A DNA stretch of 64,000 nt from an uncultured delta proteobacterium (GTDB taxonomy: Bacteria; Desulfobacterota; RBG-13-43-22): the NCBI GenBank assembly GCA_963743305.1, contig CAVUPH010000037.1, forward strand, positions 15,177 to 79,176. Reading direction: 5' to 3'. The number at the start of each line of letters is the position of its first letter. The stretch's first letter is position 1. Position numbers and translations under genes: made by a program. Positions 11,678 through 60,670 of this stretch are shown here, piece by piece. The notes under the pieces are model-generated. The model did no database searches. It was not told the origin of the DNA and worked only from the letters and a program-made list of their open reading frames with translations.

Positions 11678-11849
11678 GCGCCGGGCGTGGAGCGAAAAGA
11701 AGATGGGAGAGGGAAGAGGGAAGCGATAAGAAGAGAGAAGGGGGAAGAGAGAAGAGAGCAAAAGAGGAAAAGAACTGGGAAGAGTGCAGCGCAGCCGCCC
11801 TCTATCAATTGATTATTGATTATTCGTTTTGCCTTTATCAGAAACCGTG

Positions 11850-12999
11850 ATGGAAAAAGGGACAGATAAAAAATTTAGGATTCTCCATACCGAATGGTCG
11901 GAAGGCTGGGGCGGGCAGGAAATCCGCATCTTGCTGGAAATGAGGGAACATCGACGGCAAGGTCATCAGGTCCGGATCCTCTGCCCTCCCCGAACGAAAC
12001 TGGCGGAAGAGGCCGGGAAGATGGGGATCGAGGTCATTCCCCACAAGATTAGAACCGCCTGGGAGCCCGGGGCTGTCCTGCGGATAAAAAATCTGATTCG
12101 GGAATTAAAGATCGACGTGCTGCACACCCATAGTTCGGTGGACAGTTGGGCCGGGGGCCTGGCCGGGCGCTGGGCCAAAGTTCCGGTGTTGGTTCGCACC
12201 CGTCATATTTCGGTGCGGGTGAGACGGCCCTGGTTGAACCGGGTCTATTATTTGCCCGATGCCATCATTACTACGGGGGAGCATATCCGCCGGGAATTGC
12301 TCCAAACCCACAAGATCCCAACCGAACGGATCGTTTCCATCCCCACTGGGGCGGATACGGGCCGATTTCAAGCCCGGCCCCCGGACCTGGACTTAAAGAA
12401 GAGGATGGGGCTGCCGCATCGACAGCCCGGTCGTCACCCTGGTGGCCGTTTTGAGGGCCCAGAAACGCCATGAACTGGTGATCGCCGCCGCCGCCGAGCT
12501 GATCAAGGTTTTTCCCCAGGCCCGGTTTCTTTTTGTGGGGGACGGTCCCGGCCGTGATCGAGTGGAACAGGAAATAAGAAAAGCTCAACTGGAGGATCGA
12601 ATCCTCATGACCGGCTATCGAGAGGATATTCCGGAAATCCTGTCTTTTACCGATTTAGGAATTATTTCTTCGGTGGCGGAAGGGGTCCCCCAGTTTCTTT
12701 TCCAGATTATGGCCATGGGTAAACCGGTCATTGCCACCGCTGTGGGCGGGATCCCGGATATCATCACCTCCGGGGTAACCGGAATATTGATCCCGCCGGA
12801 AGACCCAGCGGCTCTGGTTAAGGCCATGGTTCAGGCGCTACGAGATCCGGAATCGGCCGGGCGCCTGGGCGAGGAAGGCCGCCGGCTGGTGGAACAGGAA
12901 TATACGGTGGAAAAAATGGCCGAAAAGGTTTATAGGGTTTATCAGCAGGTTTATGAGCGGAAACAAGGAAACTCACTGGAGATTCAGGACAATCGATAA
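11850..12999 (+). CDS. Glycosyltransferase family 4 (frameshift near 12415)
   Basis: ILHTEWSEGWGGQEIRIL and HTHSSVDSW in one frame; EGVPQ...MAMGKPVIATAVGGIPD in the next. Confidence 0.85.
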
Positions 13000-32475: not shown

Positions 32476-32597
32476 ATTTGTTCTCCGGAAGCTGGAGGAC
32501 GTTATTAGGGCATTGATATAATTAAATAATAGTTTTATTGCCGGTAGTTAATCGCATGAAGTTGTTTCTCATTTTTGGCTGATTGTGGAGGTCTGAG

Positions 32598-35500
32598 ATG
32601 ATAATCAAGAAATGGGGTATTTTAGTATCGATTGCGGGTTTTGCCATTCTATCCATGACCGTCATCTCCCCCCCAATCTTTGCCGCTACACCGGTGACAA
32701 CCTGGGAGTATGATCAGATCAGGCCGGCAATAACCTATAACAGCAAAGTTAACGAATATCTGGCGGTTTGGGAAGATCACCATTGGGGAAACGGGAACGA
32801 TTGGGACATCTATGGCCAGCGGATCGGATCGGACGGGTTGCCTGTAGGAGGCAGGTTCGGGATTTCCTGGGATAATACCCAACATCGCCAGAACCCGACG
32901 GTCGCCGTCAATACCTCCAATGGCGAGTATTTGGTGGTTTGGGAGTATGAATACTCGCCCACCGACCACGATATTCTTGCGCGCCGATTAAGTAGTGACG
33001 GGACATTAATTGGGAACGAGTTTGTAATCGCTAACTTGACCAATAACGAAAGCTCTCCGGCCATCACCTTTAATCCTTTTTATAACGAATACTTAGTAGT
33101 CTGGAAACAATTCACCGGCTCCGAAGAGTTTTTTCAAGGAGATATCCTTGCCCAGCGTATAAATGCCGATGGAACGAAAAATGGAAGTTCATTCGTTATC
33201 ACTGATCAGGCATACGACGAAGGAGCCCCGGCCGTTGCCTATAATTCCGTTAACGCAGAATATTTGGTGGTTTGGGAAAGCCAGCCTTTGGACGACTACA
33301 ATATTACCGGGCAACGGGTTGCGAGCAACGGAGGCCTCTTGGGATCCGATATCCTCATCTCTAACTGGTCGTACAACCAGCGGAGGCCAAAAGCGGCCTA
33401 TAACAGCCAGGACAATCAATACCTGGTTGTTTGGGAGGACCACCATCTGGGAGGTGCCCCAGAAGGTGACATTTACGGTCAGTTGATTAATAACAATGGG
33501 TCCCTGCTTGGGAGTAATTTCCCCATTTCTTGGGACGGGACCAATTCCCGTTTGAACCCGTCCGTTGCCTATAGCAAAACCGGCAACGAATACCTGGTGG
33601 TCTGGGAATATGTTTACAGCGTCACCGACCATGACATCTATATCCGTCGGGTGAAAAAAGACGGGTCGCTGATCGAGAATGAGATTTCCTTCTCAGCATC
33701 AGGGAGTTACGAAGGTTACCCGGCACTAAGCTCAGATGGGGGCCTAAATTATTTGCTTGTTTGGGAGGATGGCCGGGATGCTGCATCCCAAGGAATAAAC
33801 CTATACAGCAGTCTGTATACGTTAACCGCCCTTTCGGGAACGGTCTACGTCGGCAATGTAGGCAATGAAACCATTCCTCTGGGAGGAGCAACCGTCCGAT
33901 TGTACTGTTCAAGTAATGCCAATGAGTTAGGAGTCCTCCTCGCCGATAATGTAACCAATTCTTCTGGTTATTACGCCCTTCCCGTTTCCGGGTCATGTAA
34001 TTATTATAATATTGTTGAGGTTGATTTGCCGGGATATAGCTCGGCCGGAGATACTTCTATTGATGGGACGGTGGTTGATGCCAATAGAATCAGATATTCT
34101 TCGCCCTTATCGGGGAAGACCCTCTCTTCTAATAAGTTCTGGGATCATCCACCCTCCACTACGACCTCCTGTTCTTCTTGTGACGATTGCACAGCCAAAC
34201 TGAATGGATCCTATGGGACTATTAACCTGGCCAATAATTTAACCGAAATTACCGGGTCCTGTATTGGTTTTAATGCCAGCAATGCCACCTTTGATTGTCA
34301 GGGACACACGATTAGTGGGACCGGAGGTGAACAAACTTACGGGATCAAATGGCTGGGGAAGACAAACAATACCATCAAGAATTGCACCATATCCTATTTT
34401 GAAACGGGGATCGATTTGCAGGGATCGACCTATGCGGCGTTAAACAATAACACCCTTCAACATAATACCTATAGTGGAATCTATCTAAATGAGTCCAATT
34501 CGAATACGATAACCAGCAATTCTTTCACTCGAAACGAAAACGGACTGGCGATCAACCTATCCGATTTAAATACCATAACGAGCAACACCCTATGCAAGCA
34601 GAAATCCAGGGATATTTACGGAGTAAATGAGACTACCGGGAATATTCAAACGAATAACAAGTGCGATTCGATTTATAACTGGAACGGGAATGATCAGATT
34701 ATTTCCTGCGATACGGTCTGTACGCCCAACGTCTCTACGACCTGCTCTTCCGCTACAACCTTACAAAATTCCTTGAACGGGGATTTCAACCACATAACCT
34801 TGACGAACGATATTTATGTATCTTCTGGTTTTCGTTTCCACGGCAATCATTTGACTTTGGACTGTAATGGTCACGTCTTAGGGGGATCCGGGACATCGTC
34901 CGGATTTATTATTGACAAGCAAATAGGTGTTGAAATCAAGAATTGCACGATAGCCAGTTTCGGCACCGGGATTGAATTAAGGTCGGCGTCTCAAAATTCA
35001 ATCCATAACAACCAAATCATCTACAATAATACTGGAATCAGTCTATCGAAAACCGATTTGGTATTAGAACCGACTACAAACTCTATTGCCAACAATTCAT
35101 TGAATGATAACACCAATATTGGCATCCTATTATCAGCCGGGAAAAATAATCTGATAAGTGCAAATACCATCAATAATATAGGGAATTACTCGATATGGGT
35201 AACGGGGGAAAGCTGTACCAACACCTTGGCGAATAATATCGGTCCCGGCGGGAAGAACGTCTTCTATTTAAACAATGTCGGATATGTAAATCCTCAATCC
35301 ATTCCCGTAGGGAATTACGGTGAAATTATTTTATGCAACGTACAAAACGCAATAATCGAAAACTTTGCTTTGAACAATGGAACAGCCAAGAATGACGGCA
35401 TATTATTAATAAATTCGAGCAATCTCGAATGTTCGGAATAATACCATTCAAAACACGAATGGAATTTCGCTAATCGGTTCGGATAATAATAAAATATATA

Positions 35501-38175
35501 ATAATTCCAACATTGCATTCAGCAAATCCAATGGAATTTATTTATCATTAAGCAAGAATAACCAGATTTATAGCAACACTATTCAGAACAATGATAATGG
35601 TGCGGCGGTTTATAATGACAATCAATCCAATTTTACCCAGCTTATTGATAATATTATAAAAACAAATAAAAATGGGATAACGGTTGACAACTCGGACAAC
35701 GTATCCATGAAAACCAACACCCTGGAGAGTAACGTAAATGACGGGATTTATATCCATGAATCGGATAATAGCCTATTGGAGGGGAATAAGGCCAATCTCA
35801 ACGGCTCGGGTATATGGTTGGCTCCCCACAGCAACAAGGCCGAATTAAAAAGCAACGTGGCGTGTTACAACAAGAATTCCGATTTCTATAATGAGAATTA
35901 TAATGAGAGACAACACCAACACCGGACAGTCCAATAAATGTATCAATTCCTGGAATTGGCAGGATTCGGATTTGTACATGGCTTCCGGGTGCAAAACCAA
36001 ATGTGTCGGCTGGTATCAATACCAATATGGCTACAATTTTAAAAATCCCTCAAAAGAATGGCTATCCTGGGATGAATTCATTGAAACGTTTGGGGTGGAA
36101 AGCATTTTTGCAACGGTCGATGTATGTATTGGTTTGGGTGGATGCATTCCATTTTTAGGTTGCCTCTGTGCGGGGTACGTTGCCCATATCCCAACCGGTA
36201 TCCCAGACCCGATTGCGTTAGGGGTAATGTTTCCGGTATACACGACAACGGCACGACCTGGGAGATGTACGGGAATGAGTAATACAAGTTTGCGGTTTTA
36301 TTATAATAATAAGAAGCCATCGGATTTTCTTCCTTCCGCAAAAAAGGTTTCCGATCTAAATTTAGAAGGACAAGTCGAATTTGATATCGACTCCTCGCAG
36401 GGTGCAATCATATCTAAGGAAATTGCAGAACCATATCTAAATTACCAGTACTTAATAGCTACGCAGGGAAAAACAACGCCAACAATGTATTGGCTCAAGT
36501 CAAACAAGGTCTCGAGAGCGGAAACCTCGGGAGTATTGTCATGTCAAACAGTGGGTCAGGTCATACCGTGGTGGCTACGGACGTTCGAGAAGATGGAAAT
36601 ATCGCCCGGATATACATATATGATAATAACCTTCCGCTTTATTCAAACCAGTTTTTGACCAATGAAGAAGATTATCCAAATATTATGATCCATAAAGACA
36701 CTAATACCTGGTCGTATGACGAGCATCCGGAATTTGATGTGATTTGGTATGCACCTTATTCACTTACCAATGGAAAACATACCCTGCCAAATTCCACAGA
36801 TCTAAATATCGGCGGTACTCTTTTCGATATTGTCACCAGTTGGGGTTCTGCAGATACTCAAGTAGAAGACGAGGCGGGCAATAAGTTAGGATGGAGGGAT
36901 GGACAATTCAAATTGGAAATACCCCGTGGAGCACCCATGCCCCTTATAGGAGGTTCAGGTTATTCGAATGTTCAAACTTTGTTTATACCTGCGAATCACT
37001 ATAAAGTGAATCTAACCGGAAAAGAAACAGGGACGTATAATTTTGCGTTGATGTTAAACAAGGCCTTTTTGCAATTAGAGGAAGTGCCGACCCAGTTGGC
37101 TACTCAGGATATATTGACTTTCAATCGCCCAAATGTGGAATTGCCACTCGGAACATATATTTTGGAGACATCGGACCTTAGTAAGACTTACTCCCTGACC
37201 TTAGGGGCTAAATTTAGTATATCCAATACGTTGCGGACCTATTCCATACGAAAGGCAACCATTAAGAAAGGCGCTAAAGCCTTATTTAGGATTAGTTCTG
37301 ATTTTAATTCAATCATTTTTACTAACCAGGGCCCTGACCCCGTGGTGTTCGATGTGGAATTTGGAAACACTATGGTTTCAAATAAGAACCAAATTGGCGA
37401 TACTATTCCCAAGGGAGGTCGTGCGAACTTAACCATCAATCCCTTTACCACACTGGTATTGACCCCTATAGACTGGCTTAATTTAAATCAAAACCAAATA
37501 AGACTAACTGAAGAAGAATGTGGAAATCAGATATGTGGAAATGGGGAAGATGCGAATAATTGTTCGGTGGACTGTCCAATAATTAATTCTCAAGGGCCCT
37601 ACGATAACATGCACATTACGGAATCGACCACACTAGCTACCGGCACTTACCCAATAAGTGATCCGGGAGGGGATGGAGTGCTGATTATTGAAAGGGATGG
37701 AGTAACCTTGGATTGTAACGGTGCCAAATTGCAGGGAAACGGAACCGGGACAGGTATTGTAAGCAACGGGAAAAGTAACGTCACTATTAAGAATTGTCTA
37801 ATTGAAAATTACGGAGTTGGAATTAAATTCGACAACAATTCAAAGATAAAAATCATAAATTCCGCAGTGACAGCTAACAAACAGTCAGGGATCCAAGCTA
37901 GTAGTTCCAGTAATTCGGAAATATCACAAAATTATCTGAATGACAATGGGAATGGAATGGAATTGATGGGATCAAACGACTCAAAAGTGACCCAAAATAT
38001 CATCTGCGGGAATTCAAATTTGGATATTAATTCATCCTCAAGCAGTAACAATGTGGGGACAGGTAATATTTGCAGGAATGTTAACGATTGGGAAGAACAG
38101 GGGGTAATGGGATGTACTTATGTGTGTGGGGAATTTAAGAATTTGATCTATCTTCCAATTATATTGAAGGATTAA
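32598..38175 (+). CDS. Large secreted multidomain protein (about 1860 aa): 7-repeat beta-propeller-like region, Ig-like domain, NosD/CASH parallel beta-helices, Cys-rich motifs, C-terminal IYLPIILKD; split by three frameshifts (near 35430, 35900, 36480)
   Basis: GGAGG RBS and signal peptide; seven YLxVW repeats; repeated TLDCNG/GIxLxxSxNNxIxxN; beta-helix sequence continues across the first break into the frame of ORF 35707-35937. Confidence 0.8.
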
Positions 38176-38224: not shown

Positions 38225-39648
38225 TTAATGGCCCAATTGTGGTCTGTTGGTATCCTTCAAGAGTTCTTCCGGCGTCTTCAAAACAGAAAAAATTGCAAAA
38301 AGCAGAACGGGAAAGAGTTGCAGGAAGAGGCGGTCCAGTGTGGTATCCAGATAAAAGGTCAGATTTTGGGGGAAAAGGAGGAAGACCAGAAAAAAAACGG
38401 CGGTTTGCAGCGAGATCAAAATAAAGGGGAAAAGGTCCTTTTTTAAAGCTTGATCAGAAAGGCGCGCGAAGAAAGCGTATAGAATCAAAACCGGCAGTAG
38501 GGGAAAGGTCCATTGCCCAAAAAACAAAGCACTTTTGAAAAACCGAACCAGAATGGTCCCATATCGGCCAAGGTCGGTCAGATGGGCCGCCAATGGTTCC
38601 GGCCGGTTTAAGGCATAAAAACTATTGGCCGGGGCTAAAAGGAGTTTATGGTAAAGGATCAACACCAGGACTGGCGCCAACCCGATGAGGAAGAATAAAC
38701 AGGGTTTCCAGTGGATGCTTCCAGCGATGGGTTAGGGCCCCTACAAACAACAGGGAAAGAGGTATTAGGGCCGCCAAGACCTGCCCCTCGTTTTTAGTCC
38801 AGGCGGAGAAACCGATCAGTAGGCCGGCCAAAATAGAGGCGCCGTAGTTATTTGCAGGCCTGCGGTCGGATAAGGATAAAAGGGCAATTCCCGAAAGTAA
38901 GTAAAAGGCTAAAGGGATATCCGCATATTGGGAGGCCCCATGGATCAAGAAGAAAGGGGTCCCCAAAAGGAGTATCCCCGCCAGGTATCCCTGACTGCTG
39001 CTTTTTATCGGGCTTAAGGAAGAAACCAGTATCCCGGTAGTGCTGAGGGTGAATAGTAAGGCCAGAGCCGAGGGTACCCAAGGCGTTTCCTCTCCCAGGT
39101 AAAACCAGCCGCGCGCTATAGCTAAAGGCAACAGCAAGGGATAATCCGGATGAGACCAGCCCAGAAGAGGGCTAAAGCCATCCTGCCAGTTTTCGGCCCC
39201 TCTAAAAATGAAACGGGCCCGGTTATTCCAAATGGCCCAAGCATCCCAATTTCCATGGGGATACAAAATGGAGATTAGTATCAAGACCAAAGTTCCGCTG
39301 ATTAATAAAAGATAAAAACCAGAAGCGGTGATAGCGCTGAATCGAGAGGAAGACGGCTGGGAACCCCGCGGTTCAATATTTTTTGGACGCCTCTTTTTAT
39401 TGACTGCCGAGTGCATCACCAAGAATAAGCAGAGTAGTAATTCCAAGCAGTATATAGCTTTTATGAAACCGGCCAATCAGTAAAAGCCAAAGAAATAGGA
39501 GGGCGGAAGAAAACCCCCATCCCACCCCCAGGCCGAGGAAGAGGCGGAAGATTAAGGGATGTTTTTCCTCCGGACCGGAGAGCAACCGATCGACCAAGGC
39601 CGAACCCGTAAGGAAAGAAATCACTAGGGAAAAAAAGAAGGCCATCAA
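38225..39648 (-). CDS. Polytopic membrane protein, GT-C/PMT-like glycosyltransferase (split by two frameshifts)
   Basis: Fragments 39397-39648, 38646-39476 and 38225-38680 are all hydrophobic; WDAWAIW, HPDYPLLLP, YADIPL, WTKNEG motifs. Confidence 0.65.
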
Positions 39649-40212: not shown

Positions 40213-40690
40213 CTATTTTCCGGCGTAAATCTTTTTCATCTCCAATTTTATTCGGTCAATGGGAACGCCCAGATCGTTGAGTAAAAAAGCGTGCATTGTT
40301 TGTGCATCGCAGACGTTGCAGTTGGCCGCATGGTCATCAAATTTACCAAGGGTCCCCTTTTTGAGAAAGCAATAAGAAAGGTTTTTGTGACCCATCTCTT
40401 CGCAAAAACAGTAGCAGTGAAAATTGGGCCAATAAACGTGTTTCCTTGACCGCGATCTTGTAAGACACCAGAACAGAATCATTGATGTAGACGAATTTTG
40501 GAAAATTATAGCTTTTCCAAGTTTCTCCGGGATATTTTTTGGCTACCAGGGGCATTGCCCTGGCTGTGAGTTCCTGGAGATTCATTTTGGCCAGGGCCTG
40601 TATTTCTTTTTCCTGATTGGATGACCAGACGAGATTATTCATAAAAAAAACCAGCAGCGCAACCAAGATGCTTTTCGCGAAAATTTTCAT
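40213..40690 (-). CDS. Exported PCYCGC-family-like metal-binding protein (variant HCYCFC); frameshift near 40422
   Basis: Removing one T joins LLAQF to HCYCFCEEMGHKNLSYCF...DHAANCNVC; N-terminal signal peptide. Confidence 0.75.
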
Positions 40691-40715
40691 GGTCGTTTCT
40701 CCTTCCCTCTATTGT

Positions 40716-41756
40716 TTACCAAGGAAACTTAAAAAGCCAATTTTTCACCCGGAACCAATGACCGACAACGATAGCCGCCGTTTGACTCAAAATAATAAAA
40801 GCGAAAACCAGGTTAAGGATCAGCCTTTCCTTAACAAACCATTTGCCGCCCGGTAGTATTGAGCGATCGAGTACCGGGCAGAGGACTAAGAACAGGCCGA
40901 TAAATAAAGGCACCACAATGCCGCCGACCAAGGCCGAATGACTTACCATTTCCTGGATACCCACCAGATACCAGGGTGCTTTGGCCGGGTTGGGCGGATG
41001 CAGAGGATCGGCCCTTCCCGACAGCGGAGCTTCGATGAAAAGCGCTAGGACGAGCAGAAGGGAAAGGGTCAGGAGGCCGACAGCCAATTCCGCTTTAAAG
41101 AGTATCGGCGAAGAGGCAATTTTCTCAGAATCCGGACCCTCGAAGGTAGCCAGCCCCCCGGCTTTCCGGATACGCCAAAGATGCAGCGCAACCAGGAACA
41201 CCCACAGGGAGGGCAGGAAGGCCACGTGCAGAGCAAAGGACCGGATTAGGGTATCGGGGCCTATTTCCTGACCACCCAGGAGAAACCTGCGGATGGAGGG
41301 GCCGGCGAAAGGGAAGTACGAGGCCAGATTAGAACCTACTTTGATTGCCCAAAAAGACGTCTGGTCCCAAGGAAGGAGGTACCCCGTATAATTGCTCGCC
41401 AAAGTCAGTGTCAAGAGGCCCAGCCCGTAGACCCAATTCAGATAACGCCCCTGATAGCTTCCGGTGAAATAAACCCTGGTCAGGTGCAGGAAACCCGCGA
41501 TCAACAGAACATTGGCAGCCAAGTAATGGAGGTTTCGCACCAACCCGCCATATCGCAGTGTAGTCATGATATGAATTATCCGGTCATAAGCCACCTCCTC
41601 GTAAGGAACGTAATAGAGCAGGAGTGTCACCCCGGTCAAAACAAGTAAAATAAGACAGGATAGGCAGATGACGCCCAGACCGAGGGTTGTGAGTGGTTGC
41701 AGGGTCTTCACCTGGATTAGCGGTGGATGGAGGTGTTTCAGAAAATTTATTTTCAT
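40716..41756 (-). CDS. Cytochrome b (b/b6 plus subunit IV-like region) of a Rieske/cytochrome b complex
   Basis: Four heme His (RNLH, FLH, ALHV, ALHL), TGYLLPWDQ, and APWY at the PEWY position. Confidence 0.92.
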   Translation of the reverse strand: MKINFLKHLHPPLIQVKTLQPLTTLGLGVICLSCLILLVLTGVTLLLYYVPYEEVAYDRIIHIMTTLRYGGLVRNLHYLAANVLLIAGFLHLTRVYFTGSYQGRYLNWVYGLGLLTLTLASNYTGYLLPWDQTSFWAIKVGSNLASYFPFAGPSIRRFLLGGQEIGPDTLIRSFALHVAFLPSLWVFLVALHLWRIRKAGGLATFEGPDSEKIASSPILFKAELAVGLLTLSLLLVLALFIEAPLSGRADPLHPPNPAKAPWYLVGIQEMVSHSALVGGIVVPLFIGLFLVLCPVLDRSILPGGKWFVKERLILNLVFAFIILSQTAAIVVGHWFRVKNWLFKFPW

Positions 41757-41771
41757 GCTTTACTTCAGGTC

Positions 41772-42252
41772 CTATCCCTTACGATCAGGGACTGGTTCTC
41801 TTAGCGCCAACCAGCTCGGCTTCGTCAATTTTTCTCCGATATGCACCCATAGTCTGCCACCTCGCTCCATTACTTCGTGCCAAGGAAGCGGATCAGTGGC
41901 CGGACCTGAATAGACTTGGCCCAGCGGGACCGAATTCGCTGCCATGGCAGGGACAAAAAAAACCCTGGTCGACCACATTGAGAAGACAGCCCAAATGGGT
42001 GCATTCCAAGCTGATGGCCCCGATCCTCCGGGAAGACCGGATGACGACTATCTTGTGCTCGGGGAAAGGGGTCAGTGTACCGGGTGCAAACCGGTCCAGG
42101 GAAGAAATTTGGACCCAACTACCGGAAGAAAACCGGGAGGCTGCCGTCCAGACGTTGCCGAAGATCCAGGCAAAGGCCGTTCCTACAGCCCCCAAGCCGC
42201 CAATCACCAGCCATCTGAATAGAAATTCCCGCCGGCTAACGCGTTTCGTCAT
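41772..42252 (-). CDS. Rieske 2Fe-2S protein, Tat-exported (frameshift near 41927)
   Basis: SRREFL Tat motif, CTHLGC and CPCHGS boxes; the next frame gives GQVYSGPATDPL. Confidence 0.92.
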
Positions 42253-43897
42253 CGGCTCCTCGCTCTCCGGAAAATTTTCGGACCAGACCAACCAGGCCCC
42301 AGATTGATTCCGGTCGGAGATTGTCGGCAAAGGGCCGCATGGCGGTCCCTGGAATCCCGTAAGTTATGGCGGTTGCAATTCGTTCATCGGGGAAAGACCT
42401 GAAGTAGGGAACATTGGTGAGGTCTCTCGGTCTGGGCAGATATTTCAGGTAGGCGGGTCCCTTTCCCTTCCCTTGATAACCGTGGCAGAGGGAGCATTTT
42501 TTCCTAAAGGTGGAGAGGGTCTCTTCAGAAGACGGTAAGGTCCTAGGTCTGGGCGGAGGAGTATTCATCATCTTAACCGTCCTTTCTGTTTTGATGAATA
42601 CCTGAAAGAGAAGGTCTACCAGGGAATTGATGGTTTCTTGCCCCAACAACTCCCCATAGGGCGGCATCGAGGTGCCTGGAATCCCCTTGGTTAGGCTTCC
42701 CGTGATTCTTGAATCGGGGATAGCCTTGAAAAACAACGCGTTGTGACGGAAGGCCCGGGGAAAGGTCGCCACGTTCGGCTCGATGATCCCAAACCCATCG
42801 CCCTGGGCGGCGTGGCACCGTTGGCAGAGCATCATGTACGCATTTCTGGGAGTCCCCTGGTGAAAGTGGGCCCTTTGCTTCTGTTGAAGGAGGGAAAGAA
42901 GTCCGTCTTCTTCTCCCGTGCCCATGGGGATTCTCGGCATAATGGCGCCAGGGATTTCGATTCCCGGCCGATGCAGGAAATTCCTGATATAATCCCTTGG
43001 CCTCATAAAGGCCATATAAGAAAGGTCCGGTCCAATCTGGCCGTCGGATTCCCCGAACTTGTGGCAGGCCAGACATTTCTTTTCCTTGAGCAGCTCCATT
43101 CCCATTGGGACCCGTTGGGTGAGCCCTATTCTCTCCAGCCGTTCCTGCTCCCGTTCCCTTGATAGGCGGATCATCGGCGTTTCATAGTACGGCTCTTTCA
43201 CCCGACTCTTCAGAAAATAGGAGAGGGCGTTCACTTCTTCAGGAGAAAGTCCGAATTTCGGCATGATCGAGTTCTCAAGGATTGTCCTGGGATTCCCGAT
43301 AGCCATTTTAATTTGTTTCAACCCCAGGTACGAGCCGACCTCGCTTAGATCCGGGCCATAGCTGGAACCTTTCTCCCCGCTTCTCGTGTGGCAGGTATCA
43401 CAGGCGGTTTCGGAAAACAACCGGCTCCCTTGCCAGGCTTTTTCCGCTCCCCGGAGTGGTTTCAATTCATGGCATTGGTAACAACTGGCCTGCAGGTCTT
43501 CCCCGGCCAGGACCTTTCGCGCTTCATTCCCTGTTCGGCCATGGGATATCTTGAGATCGGCAGCCATTCCTTCACCTAAATGGCAGGCCGTGCATCCCAG
43601 GTCAGACATGGAATGGGGAGCGATGTTCGGATGGTCGCGCCCGGGCAGAGAATGATCGATCCGCACGGCGGCCCTCCCCTCGGGGTGACACGTCCGGCAG
43701 TGTTCTTGTTTCGGTGTTCCGCCAAGGTTGACGGTTATGTTGGCGATGTGGTGGGAGCCAGTCCTTCCATAGCGATAGTAACGACCCGACTGCTCTTCCC
43801 ACCCCTGATAGCTCCAAAAAACGAGCAGACCCAGGGTTAGAACCAAGGCGGTCAGGAGAAAGACATCGATCAACAACGCTACACGTCTCTTTGGCAT
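42236..43897 (-). CDS. Membrane-anchored multiheme cytochrome c (7 CxxCH)
   Basis: CRTCH, CTACH, CYQCH, CDTCH, CLACH, CQRCH, CSLCH; N-terminal TM helix. Confidence 0.93.
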   Translation of the reverse strand: MPKRRVALLIDVFLLTALVLTLGLLVFWSYQGWEEQSGRYYRYGRTGSHHIANITVNLGGTPKQEHCRTCHPEGRAAVRIDHSLPGRDHPNIAPHSMSDLGCTACHLGEGMAADLKISHGRTGNEARKVLAGEDLQASCYQCHELKPLRGAEKAWQGSRLFSETACDTCHTRSGEKGSSYGPDLSEVGSYLGLKQIKMAIGNPRTILENSIMPKFGLSPEEVNALSYFLKSRVKEPYYETPMIRLSREREQERLERIGLTQRVPMGMELLKEKKCLACHKFGESDGQIGPDLSYMAFMRPRDYIRNFLHRPGIEIPGAIMPRIPMGTGEEDGLLSLLQQKQRAHFHQGTPRNAYMMLCQRCHAAQGDGFGIIEPNVATFPRAFRHNALFFKAIPDSRITGSLTKGIPGTSMPPYGELLGQETINSLVDLLFQVFIKTERTVKMMNTPPPRPRTLPSSEETLSTFRKKCSLCHGYQGKGKGPAYLKYLPRPRDLTNVPYFRSFPDERIATAITYGIPGTAMRPFADNLRPESIWGLVGLVRKFSGERGADDETR

Positions 43898-43961
43898 CTG
43901 TCTCAGTTGATCCGAGAGGGTACGCTCAATGATCGCTCAGAAACATAACCCTTCGCTCTTC

Positions 43962-44375
43962 CTATTTCCGCTCGGTCGGATAGTTTGCCTGATCCCACTC
44001 ATTCCACCCGCCTTTGAGGACGGATACCTTCTTAAATCCCCGCTTGATAAGTTCCTGTGCCACCCGGGCACTGGTCGCCTCATCTTGTCAGGCTCAGTAA
44101 AGGACAATGGTTTTTGCCTTGGAATACTTTTTGGCCCAGGATTTCACAGCGCCAGGATCTTCCCGAACCGCCCCTTTGATTTGCTTCAAACTCATTTTCC
44201 GGTCCCATAAAGTCCGGACATCAATAACCACCACCTCCGGTTTCCCCAGCATGGCTTTGAGTTCCTCTTTGCTGATTCGGGGAATCTCCGAGGAAATGGC
44301 CGTAAATACCCAGATCCCCAAGAGTATAAAGACCATTGCCATACCGGCTATTGCTTTCCTTACCATTTTTTCCAC
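43962..44375 (-). CDS. Exported rhodanese-domain selenoprotein with two selenocysteines (active site Y-U-A-U); alternative ATG at 44366
   Basis: After TIVLY: TGA(44094-44096) GCC TGA(44088-44090), then in-frame QDEATSARVAQELIKRGFKKVSVLKGGWNEWDQANYPTERK and TAG, which completes the rhodanese fold. Confidence 0.85.
44057..44071 (-). promoter_or_regulatory. Putative bacterial SECIS hairpin
   Basis: Minus strand GTGCC-CGGGT-GGCAC, starting 16 nt after the second UGA and 22 nt after the first; G at the second loop position. Confidence 0.6.
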
Positions 44376-44572
44376 ACTCCTTTCTTGATCGCATAGGGAC
44401 CCTCCGGCAACTTGAGCATTAAGTGCCTGGGTTCCTTCTAATAATATTGCTTCCTTGATCCCTTCCTTATATATTTTAAGATTATATTAGTATTAAGACA
44501 AGTCCCTAAATGGCCGGAATCCATCCTCCCCTGGTCCCTATCAAAATGCATTCTCCATTTTTTGGTATATCC

Positions 44573-45100
44573 TTAGCGTACGGGCCCAACCTTTGTTGGC
44601 TTGGCTCTTTTTTTCCGCTTGGGAGGGAGGCTCACTTCCTGCGATAAAATAAGACGCGGGAGAGTTCCATCGACGCCCAGAATCGAAACCAAACGTTTGA
44701 GTCCTCTATTAATTTCTTTCAGGCCGCTTAGCGGTGTTTTCTCCAACCCAACTACCAGTAAGCCTTGGGCCACTTCCGGAGCGGCTGCGACCAGATCTTT
44801 TCCTTTGGGGGTCAATTCTACCCAGACAATTCGGCGGTCTTCCTTGGACCGGGTCTTTTCTATCAGACCATGAGACTCGAGCCGGGTGAGGATTCCGACT
44901 ACGGTTGCCGGGTGAAGGTACATCCGGCGGGCTAATTCGGAAACCATCACCGGAGCGGCTTCGGCCAGGACCTTAATGGCCCAGAGCTGGGGACTGGTAA
45001 GACCGGTAGTATGCTCGACCTTTTTGGAATATTCATGAATGACCTGAAAGACTCTTCTTAAATTATCAATGGTATCAGCTATTAATTTTGATTGGTCCAT
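44573..45100 (-). CDS. MarR family transcriptional regulator
   Basis: GLTSPQLWAI, ELARRMYLHPATVVGILTRLE, EDRR...LTPKG. Confidence 0.92.
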   Translation of the reverse strand: MDQSKLIADTIDNLRRVFQVIHEYSKKVEHTTGLTSPQLWAIKVLAEAAPVMVSELARRMYLHPATVVGILTRLESHGLIEKTRSKEDRRIVWVELTPKGKDLVAAAPEVAQGLLVVGLEKTPLSGLKEINRGLKRLVSILGVDGTLPRLILSQEVSLPPKRKKRAKPTKVGPVR

Positions 45101-45316: not shown

Positions 45317-46708
45317 ATGACATTAGATATTAAAAGAAATCACGACCGGATTAAGATAAAAATAACCGAAGAATCGGTTATTTTTATCAGTATATTGAAA
45401 TGGTTTATCCTGTCCACGGCCATCGGGGCGATCGTTGGTCTTGCCACCGCCTTCTTTTTAAAGGTCTTGGAATGGACAACCATTTGGACCCATACCTTGC
45501 CTTATTATTTTCTTTTCCTGCCGATCGCCTTTTTTTTAAGTGCCTTAATGATTAAATATCTGGCTCCGGGGGCCGAGGGGCACGGGACCGAAAAGGTTAT
45601 CGAAGCCGTTCATAAACAATCCGGAAGAATTAAACCGATGGTCGTTCCCATAAAACTGTTGGCCACGGTCATCACCATAGCCTTCGGGGGATCGGCTGGA
45701 AAAGAAGGCCCTTGTGCGCAGATAGGCGCGGGCCTGGCCTCTATCTTTGCCTCTCTGTTTCGTTTTGATGATTTTGACCGGAAAAAGCTGGTCATCTGCG
45801 GGATCAGCGCCGGTTTCGCCAGTGTCTTCGGGACCCCTATAGCTGGGGCCATTTTCGGGGTTGAGGTACTTATGGTAGGTAGTGTCCTTTATGAAGTTCT
45901 CTTCCCTTGTTTTATAGCCGGCGTCACCTCATATCAGGTTTCATCGGCCATCGGGATTACCTACTATTATCATCCCATGCATTTGATCTCGGTTTTTAAG
46001 GAATTATTTTTCATCAAGGTTGCCTTGGCCGGTATTTTTTTCGGGATCGTTTCCTTTCTTTTAGTTGAATTACTGAAGTTGGGTAAAAAAATGGCGGATC
46101 GCCTGCCGATCTGGCCTCCTCTTAAGGGGATAATTGGGGGTCTTCTTTTGGTCGGTCTGACCTTGGCAATTTCAGACCACTATTTGGGGCTGGGATTGTC
46201 CACCATTGAGGCCTCCCTTCAAGGCCTCAAGATGGTCTGGTCTGCCTTCCTCTTGAAAATTATTTTTACCAGTTTAACCCTTAATTTTGGAGGTAGCGGA
46301 GGAATCGTTACTCCCATCTTTTTCATTGGGGTGACCTCCGGAAGTTTTTTTGCCCAAATCTGGGGCTTGGATATAGCCACTTTTTCAGCCATCGGGATGG
46401 TGGCTCTGTTAGCCGGGGCGGCCAATACACCTATCGCCGCCAGCATCATGGCCGTGGAACTTTTTGGTCCCCAAATCGCCCCCTATGCGTCCGTGGCCTG
46501 CGTCATCAGCTACCTGATGACCGGACACCGCAGCGTTTATCCCTCTCAAATTTTGTCGGTTACCAAATCACCTTCTTTTGAGTTAGAGATCGGCGACGAT
46601 ATAGATAGCACCCATGTCCACTATAAACCAAGAAAGAAAAGCCTGATCGGGGCTTGTCTGCTGGTCTTTGAATCCCTAAAAAGCGGCATAAAGCGGAAAA
46701 AGCGATAG
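45317..46708 (+). CDS. CLC family chloride/anion channel-transporter
   Basis: GGSAGKEGPCAQIG, FGTPIAGAIF, GGIVTPIF, AANTPIAA. Confidence 0.92.
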   Translation: MTLDIKRNHDRIKIKITEESVIFISILKWFILSTAIGAIVGLATAFFLKVLEWTTIWTHTLPYYFLFLPIAFFLSALMIKYLAPGAEGHGTEKVIEAVHKQSGRIKPMVVPIKLLATVITIAFGGSAGKEGPCAQIGAGLASIFASLFRFDDFDRKKLVICGISAGFASVFGTPIAGAIFGVEVLMVGSVLYEVLFPCFIAGVTSYQVSSAIGITYYYHPMHLISVFKELFFIKVALAGIFFGIVSFLLVELLKLGKKMADRLPIWPPLKGIIGGLLLVGLTLAISDHYLGLGLSTIEASLQGLKMVWSAFLLKIIFTSLTLNFGGSGGIVTPIFFIGVTSGSFFAQIWGLDIATFSAIGMVALLAGAANTPIAASIMAVELFGPQIAPYASVACVISYLMTGHRSVYPSQILSVTKSPSFELEIGDDIDSTHVHYKPRKKSLIGACLLVFESLKSGIKRKKR

Positions 46709-59459: not shown

Positions 59460-59804
59460 ATGGCAACGATGATGAAAACGCCCCAACGCGAGTTACACGA
59501 TTACATTTCGGAGATCTCCGAACGTGCTGACGTTCGGTCGGGCTCTCCTCTGCCTGTGGGAACCCAGGAAAGGGGAGGAGGAGTTAATTTCGCCCTTTTC
59601 AGCCGACACGCCAGCCGCGTTCGATTGGAGTTGTTCGACCACCCCGAAGATGCCGTACCCGCCCGGGTAATCGATGAGGGAAACGAACCGGGGCCGACGC
59701 TTTGTTTCCGCGGGATGGATAACGCAATCTACTACACGCTGGCGGGCGACAAACGCTACTACAAGGACTACACGGGCACCGGCAACACCATCAACGCTAA
59801 CCAT
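59460..59804 (+). pseudogene. glgX: Glycogen debranching enzyme remnant with an internal deletion and lost C-terminal part
   Basis: [20 protein letters not shown] is joined directly to [20 protein letters not shown]...YTGTGNT, normally far apart. Confidence 0.85.
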
Positions 59805-60670
59805 TGTTCGTGGAACACCACAGCGCCGATGTCTGGGCTCATCCCGGGCTTTTCAAACTGGACGCCGGTGGAAACCCCACCGTGGTCGCAGGAGTTCCTC
59901 CCGACTATTTCTCCAAAACAGGACAATTGTGGGGTGCCCCCGTGTATCGCTGGGAGGCGCTTCAAGAGCAGAACTACACCTGGTGGATCGAACGCCTGCG
60001 GAAGGCTTTTGGACGGTTCGATGTCAATCGGCTGGATCATTTTATCGGCTTTGTCCGCACCTATGAAGTGCCTGCTAAAGCCAAGACGGCCTTGAACGGG
60101 CGGTACCAACCTGGCGGAGGCGTTTCATTTTTCGAGGCCGTCCGTGAAGCCCTGGGGATATTGCCTTTGATCGCGGATGATCTCGGTGCCACAACACCCG
60201 AAGTGGTGGCCTTACTGGATCGATTTCAGATCCCGGGCACACGGGTGCTCCAATTCGAGTTCGGCTCAAATCTTGAAACCAATTCAGCTCTACCGGAACA
60301 GCATCCCGTGAAGTCAGTGGTCTACACCGGAACTCATGATAACGACACGACCGCAGGCTGGTATCGGAAGTTGCCAAGCACGCAACGCAAAGCCTTGCAA
60401 AAACACCTGGGAGCAAACAACCGGGAGGTTACCTGGGCCATGATCCGTGAGGCGTTGGCCTCGCAGGCCGACACCGCCATCGTTCCAGCGCAAGACCTCC
60501 TGGAGCTGGGGTCGGAGTCGCGAATGAATTTTCCCGGAATAGCGAAAGGAAACTGGCGATGGCGCCTGAAAGATGGGGCGCTGACCCAGGAGCTCGCGCA
60601 ACGGCTGCGAAACATAACCATGACGTCTGGGCGTCTGAGGAGTGGTGAGTCCCCGGGGACAGGAAAATGA
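59801..60670 (+). pseudogene. malQ: 4-alpha-glucanotransferase, C-terminal half only
   Basis: [46 protein letters not shown]; N-terminal half missing. Confidence 0.85.

Follow-up and report, generated by a model that had tools for sequence, protein, structure and literature searches.

Six genes on the minus strand, running from marR to a gene for a PCYCGC-like protein, occupy positions 40213-45100 of a 64,000-nt stretch of contig CAVUPH010000037.1 (assembly GCA_963743305.1) from an uncultured delta proteobacterium of the phylum Desulfobacterota; this stretch is referred to throughout as the window, and all coordinates are window positions. Downstream of marR lie genes for an exported rhodanese with two predicted selenocysteine (Sec) residues, a heptaheme cytochrome c, a Rieske 2Fe-2S protein, a cytochrome b and the Cys-rich PCYCGC-like protein (Table 1), and on this gene content the region is predicted to encode an alternative Rieske/cytochrome b complex that is specific to the Desulfobacterota. 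A preliminary description of the same DNA had placed the six genes correctly, but made no mention of the frameshifts by which the Rieske and PCYCGC-like genes are interrupted. Its claim of a compact operon agrees with the intergenic gaps, which from the rhodanese through to the PCYCGC-like gene amount to 64, -17 (an overlap), 15 and 25 nt; marR is separated from the rhodanese gene by 197 nt, and the arrangement would fit a single transcription unit. A scan of the window for promoter and terminator consensus sequences gave counts not above those of shuffled sequence (5 versus 4.5 and 11 versus 7.6, respectively), no RNA run is among the sequencing runs listed as carrying the locus, the best of these runs containing at most 0.10 of the sampled words, and the window returned neither an Rfam match at gathering threshold nor a tRNA with ARAGORN.

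Table 1. Features at the locus, in window coordinates
Feature	Position	Strand	Description
marR	44573..45100	-	175 aa, no cysteine; Pfam MarR 54.9 bits; upstream of operon, same strand
Rhodanese	43962..44375	-	Exported, single-domain, 137 aa; active site L-Y-U-A-U-Q-D-E-A-T-S; Pfam Rhodanese 57 bits
TGA pair in rhodanese gene	44094-44096 and 44088-44090	-	In frame, GCC between
Selenocysteine insertion sequence (SECIS)-type hairpin	44054..44074	-	CCAGUGCC-CGGGU-GGCACAGG
Heptaheme cytochrome c	42236..43897	-	553 aa, 7 CxxCH; Pfam Cytochrome_CBB3, Cytochrom_C, C7
Rieske 2Fe-2S protein	41772..42252	-	Pfam Rieske; twin-arginine (TAT) signal SRREFL; +1 base at ~41926-41929
Cytochrome b	40716..41756	-	346 aa; Pfam Cytochrome_B 129.6 bits; Qo motif APWY
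PCYCGC-like Cys-rich exported protein	40213..40690	-	Pfam PCYCGC 30.6 bits (C-terminal piece); +1 base at ~40418-40425
ClC-type channel/exchanger	45317..46708	+	Pfam/NCBIfam ClC; divergent from marR

The component set of a bc1/b6f-type complex is found at the locus, namely a Rieske protein with its cluster boxes, a cytochrome b with two His pairs and a Qo-bearing part that resembles subunit IV, and, in the place of the c-type cytochrome of such complexes, a heptaheme gene directly upstream which overlaps the Rieske start by 17 nt. The cytochrome b is a fusion of a b6-like N-terminal part and the subunit-IV-like C-terminal part, and the His pairs for hemes bL and bH were read in its translation as HYLAANVLLIAGFLH and HVAFLPSLWVFLVALH. 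The Qo motif (A/V)(K/R)APWY was present in all 31 cytochrome b sequences compared, that of the window included; the preliminary description was thus correct in reading APWY in place of PEWY, although the motif is not a novelty, being that of a known Qo clade (PMC4122944). The genome from which the window derives has three cytochrome b loci. In another pairing with cytochrome b, seen at G000:C34:70460-72292 and L073:10765-13859, a multiheme frame of about 660 aa is 24-29% identical to the heptaheme protein. The Rieske protein starts with MTKRVSRREFL and carries the cluster boxes CTHLGC and CPCHGS, which are invariant in 27 orthologues; the intact orthologues are of 147-167 aa with the consensus CPCHGSEFGPxGEVYSGPA, and the window copy is frameshifted just past the second box. 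The heptaheme cytochrome is anchored to the membrane and is composed of an N-terminal transmembrane helix, three c7/c3-like hemes and four class-I cytochrome c domains. Of the 14 CxxCH cysteines, 12 do not vary across 28 orthologues and the remaining two, C142 and C468, are at least 90% conserved, while Met212, Met320, Met411 and Met520, one in each class-I domain, are invariant; we infer that the four class-I hemes are His/Met-ligated and of higher potential, standing behind the three c7-like hemes. The same 28 orthologues have no conserved Cys outside CxxCH, and the window copy contains no in-frame TGA. A SoxX identity was considered for this cytochrome, as the whole protein scores 71 bits against 61, but no single stretch of it passes and the score was not taken as evidence.

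The distribution of the module was determined in a sample of 401 genomes of the phylum, the window's own included, and in a wider pattern scan of one genome per species over 185,579 species, in which 44 stretches emerged as candidates and 35 loci were confirmed. In the phylum sample, orthologues spanning the full cytochrome at 45-79% identity were found in 8 of the 400 other sampled genomes, and any match to it in 60 of the 401, mostly through single cytochrome domains. In all eight genomes the cytochrome gene is followed by Rieske, cytochrome b and PCYCGC genes, and in two of them (G384 and G199) the rhodanese is present as well. The 35 loci of the wider scan are all labelled Desulfobacterota bar one metagenome-assembled genome (MAG), which is probably mis-binned; they derive from delta-proteobacterial and Thermodesulfobacteriota MAGs, Desulfuromonadales, Geopsychrobacter, Geothermobacter hydrogeniphilus HR-1, a Syntrophus-like MAG, Desulfobulbaceae and Desulfatiglandales. 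The exception is a 'Pedobacter' MAG (L106), whose cytochrome and PCYCGC open reading frames (ORFs) appear almost identical to their counterparts in the Desulfuromonadales locus L096, and a binning error is its probable origin. As far as searched, then, the four-gene module is restricted to the Desulfobacterota. No description of it was found in a literature search of main texts (supplementary tables, e.g. of PMC4122944 and PMC11492766, may include such proteins), and a term search of a survey of Desulfuromonadia cytochromes did not find it.

A Rieske gene follows the cytochrome in 32 of the 35 loci and a cytochrome b gene in 30, the loci lacking them being contig edges or partial duplicates. 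Conservation of the PCYCGC and rhodanese genes beside homologous cytochrome c/Rieske/cytochrome b triads had been set as a test of the preliminary description, and the two genes gave different answers. PCYCGC adjoins in 27 of the 30 loci with cytochrome b, lying upstream in L080 and in divergent orientation in L105; among the three misses, the contig of L082 ends 95 bp past cytochrome b, L091 has 98 bp upstream only, and L097 is a true miss with this query. The rhodanese, which is of the LYCAU type, was by contrast found in only 4 of the 35 loci besides the window and G199, and it is absent beside the module from all other lineages among these loci. It is accompanied by marR in L072, L078 and L102, and in L073 (G384) no marR was detected. 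These four loci represent three genomes, whose cytochromes, like that of G199, are 70-80% identical to the window's; G384 and G199 belong to the window's family, and the rhodanese-bearing loci, the window and G199 are here taken as what is probably one family-level clade. L078 and L102 were seen to be adjacent stretches of one public contig, on which a second, partial marR-rhodanese-cytochrome copy (cytochrome residues 1-271 only, 70% identity) stands about 20 kb from the full operon. The marR gene is 82-90% identical and in a matching position in G199, L072, L078 and L102. The divergent ClC gene, conserved as a neighbour in the window's clade only, has a counterpart of 88-91% identity in the matching position in G199, L072 and L078, and L102 has only a distant ClC (32%).

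The genes around the module point away from the sulfur/selenium system that the preliminary description had proposed. All ORFs of the 35 loci, the window and G199 were clustered into neighbour families, and the only recurrent families outside the core are headed by copper efflux genes, with a CusB-type adaptor in 14 loci, a CusA/CzcA-type RND pump in 12 and an outer-membrane factor in 11, followed by a histidine kinase (6 loci) and by ClC, marR, a P-type ATPase and a YtkA-like protein (5 loci each). With further queries in tblastn, at least one copper-type gene was located within the fetched flanks of 20 of the 35 loci, a count to which no statistic is attached because relatedness makes the genomes non-independent. 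Genes of the sox, dsr, psr or sqr type, or of other sulfur or selenium pathways, are not recurrent among the neighbour clusters. The P-type ATPase, which stands convergent, co-directional or upstream depending on the locus, matches the copper-translocating ATPase model TIGR01511 with 599 bits (cut-off 397) and has YHS and HMBD domains; a multicopper oxidase and CopB are encoded directly upstream in L098 and were both matched in L088 too, and HMA proteins occur in L074, L077 and L100. In the f37 family the genes form one co-directional string, OEP-CusB-CusA-(SLT)-YtkA-like-cytochrome-Rieske-cytochrome b-PCYCGC, in which the gene directly upstream of the cytochrome encodes a YtkA-like protein with Met/His-rich stretches such as QHQHGGMSMPGMPGM; in Bacillus subtilis, a role in the assembly of CuA has been ascribed to YtkA/CtaK (PMC13344008). 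A divergent Cus operon stands about 0.45-0.55 kb from the cytochrome start in five Desulfuromonadales loci, and in G. hydrogeniphilus HR-1 (L100) the module is flanked by two Cus systems. The rhodanese-bearing clade shares this context in part: YtkA and/or Cus and CopA flank the module in three of its five genomes (L072, L073 and L078).

Several further neighbours were noted. The interval between a Cus operon and the module in G. hydrogeniphilus HR-1 (L100:3320-8457) encodes a TlpA/ResA-like redoxin, a small class-I cytochrome c, a MacB-type ABC pair, an FtrD-like membrane Fe-S protein and an HMA-SurA_N protein, and these genes jointly make up a broader island for metal and thiol stress in the periplasm. 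L087 and L106 each encode a fusion of a MerA-like flavoprotein with a VTT domain. Two ORFs of Geothermobacter-type loci that had appeared as candidate conserved neighbours were discarded, 'unk533' being taken for an antisense artefact with HMA and FtrD-like genes on the opposite strand, and 'unk168' being dropped solely for a sequence that resembles a non-coding frame. In the window itself, two large exported parallel beta-helix-repeat proteins with weak NosD-like matches are encoded just downstream of the operon on the opposite strand (32583-38175).

The PCYCGC-like protein has an orthologue in nearly every complete module, and the 22 intact orthologues (156-186 aa) have a signal peptide and six invariant Cys, two His and one Asp residue in the layout C-Y-C-F-C, M-G-H, C, D-x-H, C-N-x-C, which in the window reads CYCFC..MGH..C..D.H..CNVC. 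The window protein matches PF13798 with 30.6 bits and the intact orthologues with 35.9-54.3 bits (threshold 25 bits together with a Cys-rich motif), while the cut-off of 90 bits for the CYCXC model NF041379 was reached neither by the window protein (37.2 bits) nor by the G384 orthologue (48.4 bits). In L080 (position 1558) and L105 a TGA stands at the first Cys of C-N-I-C, the frame continues beyond it in conserved sequence, and a SECIS-like hairpin GAAGCCA-UGGU-UGGCUUC follows; given these UxxC forms, the CxxC is probably a redox or soft-metal site at which Sec is advantageous. Matches to PF13798 occur in 41 of the 401 genomes, and about 17 of 47 matches contain an in-frame TGA. A search for homologues of the PCYCGC-like protein returned 121 clusters, all labelled 'hypothetical' or PCYCGC apart from one 'Elf1' label which is probably spurious, one homologue (P0004) led to clusters of the PCYCGC/CYCXC kind alone and to no structure, and a profile search of PDB sequences gave no match (best E 1.2). 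A paper that names the family leaves its function unassigned.

The neighbourhoods of the 20 best PF13798 matches outside the known loci were annotated for 41 of 68 flanking ORFs, shorter ones being dropped. One of these matches (L138) represents a second copy of the module in G203, and in another (L127) PCYCGC precedes OEP-CusB-CusA. Five loci (L128, L131, L134, L135 and L143) contain the string RnfB-like FeS protein-PCYCGC-TPR (CcmH-like)-ResB, three (L132, L136 and L142) contain DegP-PCYCGC-TPR-AhpC/TSA redoxin, in L125 PCYCGC adjoins a DsbD_TM/CcdA gene, and the remaining nine show no clear theme. As far as these 20 loci go, the superfamily appears to be tied to cytochrome c maturation of the System II type in this phylum, and this tie weakens the case for a role of the PCYCGC-like protein as a sulfur or selenium carrier.

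The reading frame of the window's rhodanese is open only if both TGA codons are read through (...TIVLY-U-A-U-QDEATSARVA), and the two in-frame codons, a covarying SECIS hairpin and the presence of SelB and tRNA-Sec bear out the claim that it is a di-Sec protein. With 168.6 bits (154.5 bits in a six-frame search; cut-off 115) it belongs to the NCBIfam family NF041203, rhodanese_LYCAU, a known family of 'rhodanese-related (seleno)protein' of which it is predicted to be a di-Sec member. Sec use is credible, since the window's genome encodes SelB (76.5 bits) and one tRNA-Sec and since a conserved hairpin lies 3' of the TGA codons. Matches above the cut-off were found in 73 of the 401 genomes, most with one TGA; 16 genomes, the window's included, have two, with the motif Y-U-x-U in all 16. 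The codons of the G384 gene are TGA-TCC-TGA (U-S-U), and those of G199, L072, L078 and L102 are TGY-GCC-TGA (C-A-U). No description in print of the Y-U-x-U variant was met, although no search was aimed at it. Two further rhodaneses of this kind with one TGA each were observed in the window's genome, one above the LYCAU cut-off (G000:C6:223730-224092) and one a weaker relative (G000:C15:7744-8061).

The distance to the start of the hairpin is 13 nt from the second UGA and 19 nt from the first, and all LYCAU members, of which 50 distinct sequences were counted, have the form CCAGUGCC-N5-GGCAC about 13 nt past the second UGA. Over the 50 family members, all 250 cells of its 5-bp core stem are paired (250 of 250), compared with 23-47% of cells in slid registers, and double changes through synonymous Ser/Ala codons occur at two pairs (UA to CG in six members, CG to UA in two); the covariation score was reached by none of 500 shuffles. 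The two outer pairs are weak (19/50 and 37/50 paired), and a single-sequence fold of the region was not better than shuffles (z -0.74), the comparative count being what supports the hairpin. One SECIS thus appears to serve two UGA codons that are 6 nt apart, a spacing which bacterial SECIS elements tolerate. In five genomes, G150, G045, G297, G083 (L111-L114) and G260 (L119), a rhodanese of this type is fused to an octaheme cytochrome c in a single ORF of about 546-557 aa which comprises a signal peptide, a Y-U-A-U rhodanese and a part with eight CxxCH motifs (Pfam Multi-haem_cyto). Owing to these fusions an exchange of electrons or substrate between LYCAU-type rhodaneses and hemes is plausible, and the functional coupling of rhodanese and cytochrome suggested earlier gains support. 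LYCAU rhodaneses outside the module have no constant neighbour, as DUF547, amidase and multiheme cytochrome genes each occur in 4 of 43 loci.

Both interrupted genes of the window were compared with their orthologues, every one of which, among those examined, is in a single frame. The Rieske frame is broken at a CCC homopolymer run (41926-41928) and ends 12 codons past CPCHGSEF, and the conserved continuation LGQVYSGPATDPLPWHEV... stands in another frame; the PCYCGC-like gene is broken between its N-terminal part and CYCFCEEMGH..., with a TTTT run at 40420-40423. Short-read contigs of relatives that are about 85-92% identical, not of the window's strain, have one base fewer at 41929 (X2, depth 7.07/7.07; X5, 4.26/4.26) and at the PCYCGC break (X2 at 40418 and 40424; X5 at 40425), whereas contigs of X4 reach both sites with their ends only and do not bridge them; these contigs show intact genes to be the rule among relatives and do not by themselves prove an error in the window sequence. 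Very probably both frameshifts are indel errors of the assembly, as they fall in homopolymer runs, other genes of the window are split and genes of related MAGs are fragmented. At least three more genes are affected within the 64-kb window, namely a GT4 glycosyltransferase with its N- and C-domains in separate overlapping ORFs (11829-12999), a PMT_2-type glycosyltransferase in three pieces (38225-39648) and a truncated malQ (59460-60670) which covers profile positions 203-464 of 465, and in several related MAG loci CusA or P-type ATPase genes are broken into three or four pieces, a pattern of indel-prone assembly. The alternative, that this one copy is decaying and that its Rieske and PCYCGC proteins are not made, is improbable: it would account for two one-base insertions relative to every orthologue, the window's genus-level lineage has lost the flanking copper genes, and G169 and G312, the two other genomes of the same genus in the sample, have no full-length cytochrome orthologue or PF13798 match, but outside the breaks both frames are clean and 79-88% identical to intact orthologues.

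Our tentative reading, held at a little under even confidence, is that the module constitutes a quinone-linked periplasmic redox system for copper stress, to which the window's clade may have added a sulfur/selenium front end. Its basis is gene neighbourhood, as most lineages place the module next to, or in one string with, Cus, copper P-type ATPase, multicopper oxidase/CopB, HMA and YtkA-like genes. The complex would connect a thiol/selenol or metal site in the periplasm with the menaquinone pool, and its most likely job would be periplasmic redox work under copper (chalcophile metal) stress, possibly by taking electrons from Cu(I) or Cu-thiolate, or alternatively by keeping periplasmic and apocytochrome thiols in their proper redox state; it may run reversed, from the hemes to the quinone, in line with the published APWY proposal. 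In the window's clade the YtkA-like gene directly upstream would have been replaced by an exported rhodanese under MarR control with a C/U-x-U active site, a putative front end for handling sulfane sulfur, selenium or a soft metal and for trading electrons with the cytochrome. Which way the electrons flow, which substrate is used and what part the PCYCGC-like protein plays, as subunit, substrate site or maturation factor, are matters of inference. Several points weigh against a copper-stress role. Copper genes are absent from the 12 kb to each side of the operon in the window, and 15 of the 35 loci have none, most of them short-flanked, with L097 having none in flanks of 9 and 7 kb; assignment of the RND pumps goes no further than the CusA/CzcA family and is not specific to copper; reduction of menaquinone by Cu(I) would be uphill and need the proton motive force; and the PCYCGC-like protein may be a maturation factor and not a substrate site, as paralogues lie in cytochrome c biogenesis clusters in 8 of the 20 loci. 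Moreover, rhodaneses recur near the module (LYCAU in the f1 clade, two-domain rhodaneses in L081, L091 and L106), and the closest characterised cluster, ext, has now been tied to polysulfide reduction (PMC13510729). A more specific version of the copper-stress reading, which we regard as rather unlikely, would make the module a periplasmic oxidoreductase for copper that needs no O2, equivalent in strict anaerobes to the multicopper oxidase and working through a reversed APWY-type Q cycle. Cu(I) delivered by the YtkA-like chaperone, or held on the di-selenol rhodanese in the window's clade, would be oxidised at the Cys/Sec-rich PCYCGC-like protein, and the electrons would reach menaquinone by way of the heptaheme cytochrome and the Rieske centre, driven by the proton motive force.

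Two other explanations were weighed against copper stress. The module could be a quinol-linked periplasmic sulfur/selenium redox system, a compact analogue without porin of the Geobacter ext cluster, in which sulfane sulfur, polysulfide or selenium species on the C/U-x-U rhodanese are reduced or oxidised via the heptaheme cytochrome. We consider this unlikely, though a serious contender. The di-Sec rhodanese is the first operon gene in the window and its type is fused to an octaheme cytochrome c elsewhere, the two-domain rhodaneses just named and the Porin_O_P-like genes of L089 and L094 (cf. ExtI) lie near the module, ExtP and ExtQ are the NCBIfam models nearest to the cytochrome b, and ExtKL/MccSep is a Sec- and heme-dependent polysulfide reductase (PMC13510729). 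The LYCAU rhodanese is, however, confined beside the module to a single family-level clade and lacks a constant neighbour elsewhere, sulfur-pathway genes do not recur among the neighbour clusters, the cytochrome itself is devoid of Sec and extra Cys, and the likeness of the cytochrome b to the Ext models appears generic, as all Ext cut-offs were missed and the three cytochrome b proteins of the genome score alike. The module could instead be a general respiratory menaquinol:cytochrome c oxidoreductase, one of several such complexes feeding the periplasmic cytochrome pool, with PCYCGC as a dedicated thiol-redox maturation factor for the seven-heme subunit and with copper neighbours that reflect a copper-tolerant back-up chain or hitch-hiking on an island and not a copper substrate. 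The three cytochrome b loci of the genome would suit this explanation, as would the PCYCGC paralogues in System II biogenesis strings (with RnfB-like proteins in five loci, DegP in three and DsbD_TM/CcdA in one), whose tie to cytochrome c maturation feeds it, and the report that cytochrome c assembly is a key periplasmic copper target (PMC4600104). Yet all seven heme sites are standard CxxCH motifs, for which a special lyase should be unneeded, the module is rare (9 of 401 genomes, the window's included), unlike a housekeeping complex, and the copper linkage is kept across several gene orders, which argues for selection over hitch-hiking; we accordingly judge a general respiratory role to be improbable.

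A four-gene module that recurs beside copper pumps may offer a concrete handle on the function of the APWY clade and on the question of how periplasmic Cu(I) is dealt with in strict anaerobes, where multicopper oxidases that depend on oxygen are not available; the module is present in a cultured bacterium, G. hydrogeniphilus HR-1. The locus also brings to light a bacterial rhodanese family whose two active-site residues can both be selenocysteine, apparently read with one SECIS, natural fusions of such rhodaneses to octaheme cytochromes, and an uncharacterised PCYCGC family with links to selenocysteine and to cytochrome c biogenesis.

Among characterised systems the extHIJKLMNOPQS cluster of Geobacter sulfurreducens is the closest, and its make-up, with a rhodanese (ExtH), multiheme cytochromes, a Rieske protein (ExtO) and a cytochrome b (ExtP), is as the preliminary description had it (Jahan et al., PMC5877670). 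Both clusters are deltaproteobacterial and join a rhodanese-like protein, multiheme cytochromes c, a Rieske protein, a b6-type cytochrome b and a selenoprotein, in the parallel order cytochrome-Rieske-cytochrome b-small exported protein, and ExtP and ExtQ are the top-scoring NCBIfam models for the window's cytochrome b. The comparison with the Ext family models that had been suggested nevertheless fell short of all three cut-offs (ExtP 213.1 versus 290, ExtQ 72.6 versus 150 and ExtS 34.2 versus 100 bits), and the three cytochrome b genes of the genome all remain below that of ExtP (214-245 versus 290 bits, with 225-245 bits for the two outside the window). The window's cytochrome b is fused where the Ext proteins are split; the window locus (38-48 kb examined) has no ExtI, which is weakly similar to phosphate-selective porins (PMC5877670), and no ExtM, ExtN or Sec-cytochrome ExtKL/MccSep; its rhodanese is a 137-aa LYCAU type whereas ExtH is a 49-kDa lipoprotein; its last gene is PCYCGC-like where ext ends on the cytochrome ExtS; and the neighbours of the module are copper genes. 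Sec is found here in the rhodanese and in some PCYCGC orthologues, but in ext in the cytochrome: ExtKL, renamed MccSep, is a five-heme selenoprotein and polysulfide reductase essential for S0 respiration, with Sec as the nucleophile beside a Cys-ligated heme (PMC13510729, published in 2026), and is a useful parallel for the joint action of a Sec-rhodanese and a cytochrome. As regards the Qo site, APWY is one of six major motifs, and its clade includes delta-Proteobacteria and, when described, had no characterised member (Kao and Hunte, PMC4122944). APWY complexes have been proposed to accept electrons from a high-potential chain, and for that of Geobacter metallireducens, which is clustered with p-cresol methylhydroxylase, menaquinone reduction by a reversed Q cycle is cited as a proposal (Kao and Hunte 2014, PMC4122944). 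The window's cytochrome b, placed provisionally in this clade by motif alone, shares with it the APWY motif, a deltaproteobacterial host and several cytochrome b copies per genome; a heptaheme cytochrome c, a PCYCGC-like partner and a copper context were not met for the clade in the literature passages and searches covered here.

The individual proteins likewise combine family traits with features of their own. The rhodanese scores above the NF041203 cut-off and has the fold, signal peptide and SECIS hairpin common to some 50 aligned members, but in the window its first active-site Cys is also Sec (L-Y-U-A-U). The PCYCGC-like protein has in common with PF13798 and NF041379 the Cys-rich exported domain, the CYCxC motif and, further downstream, a CxxC for which some members have UxxC, but its window motif is CYCFC and not PCYCGC, its scores of 37-48 bits stay below the NF041379 cut-off of 90, and the module subfamily is fixed beside Rieske and cytochrome b genes whereas other subfamilies lie in cytochrome c biogenesis clusters. 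With regard to function, the nearest comparison may be with exported redox proteins of copper stress that are encoded beside copper efflux genes, such as the multicopper oxidases CueO/PcoA, CopG, CopI and ScsABCD, which change the redox state of copper or repair copper-damaged thiols. The module bears no sequence relation to these proteins and is known from genes alone, and in contrast to them its route would lead through hemes, a Rieske centre and the quinone pool, with no need for O2.

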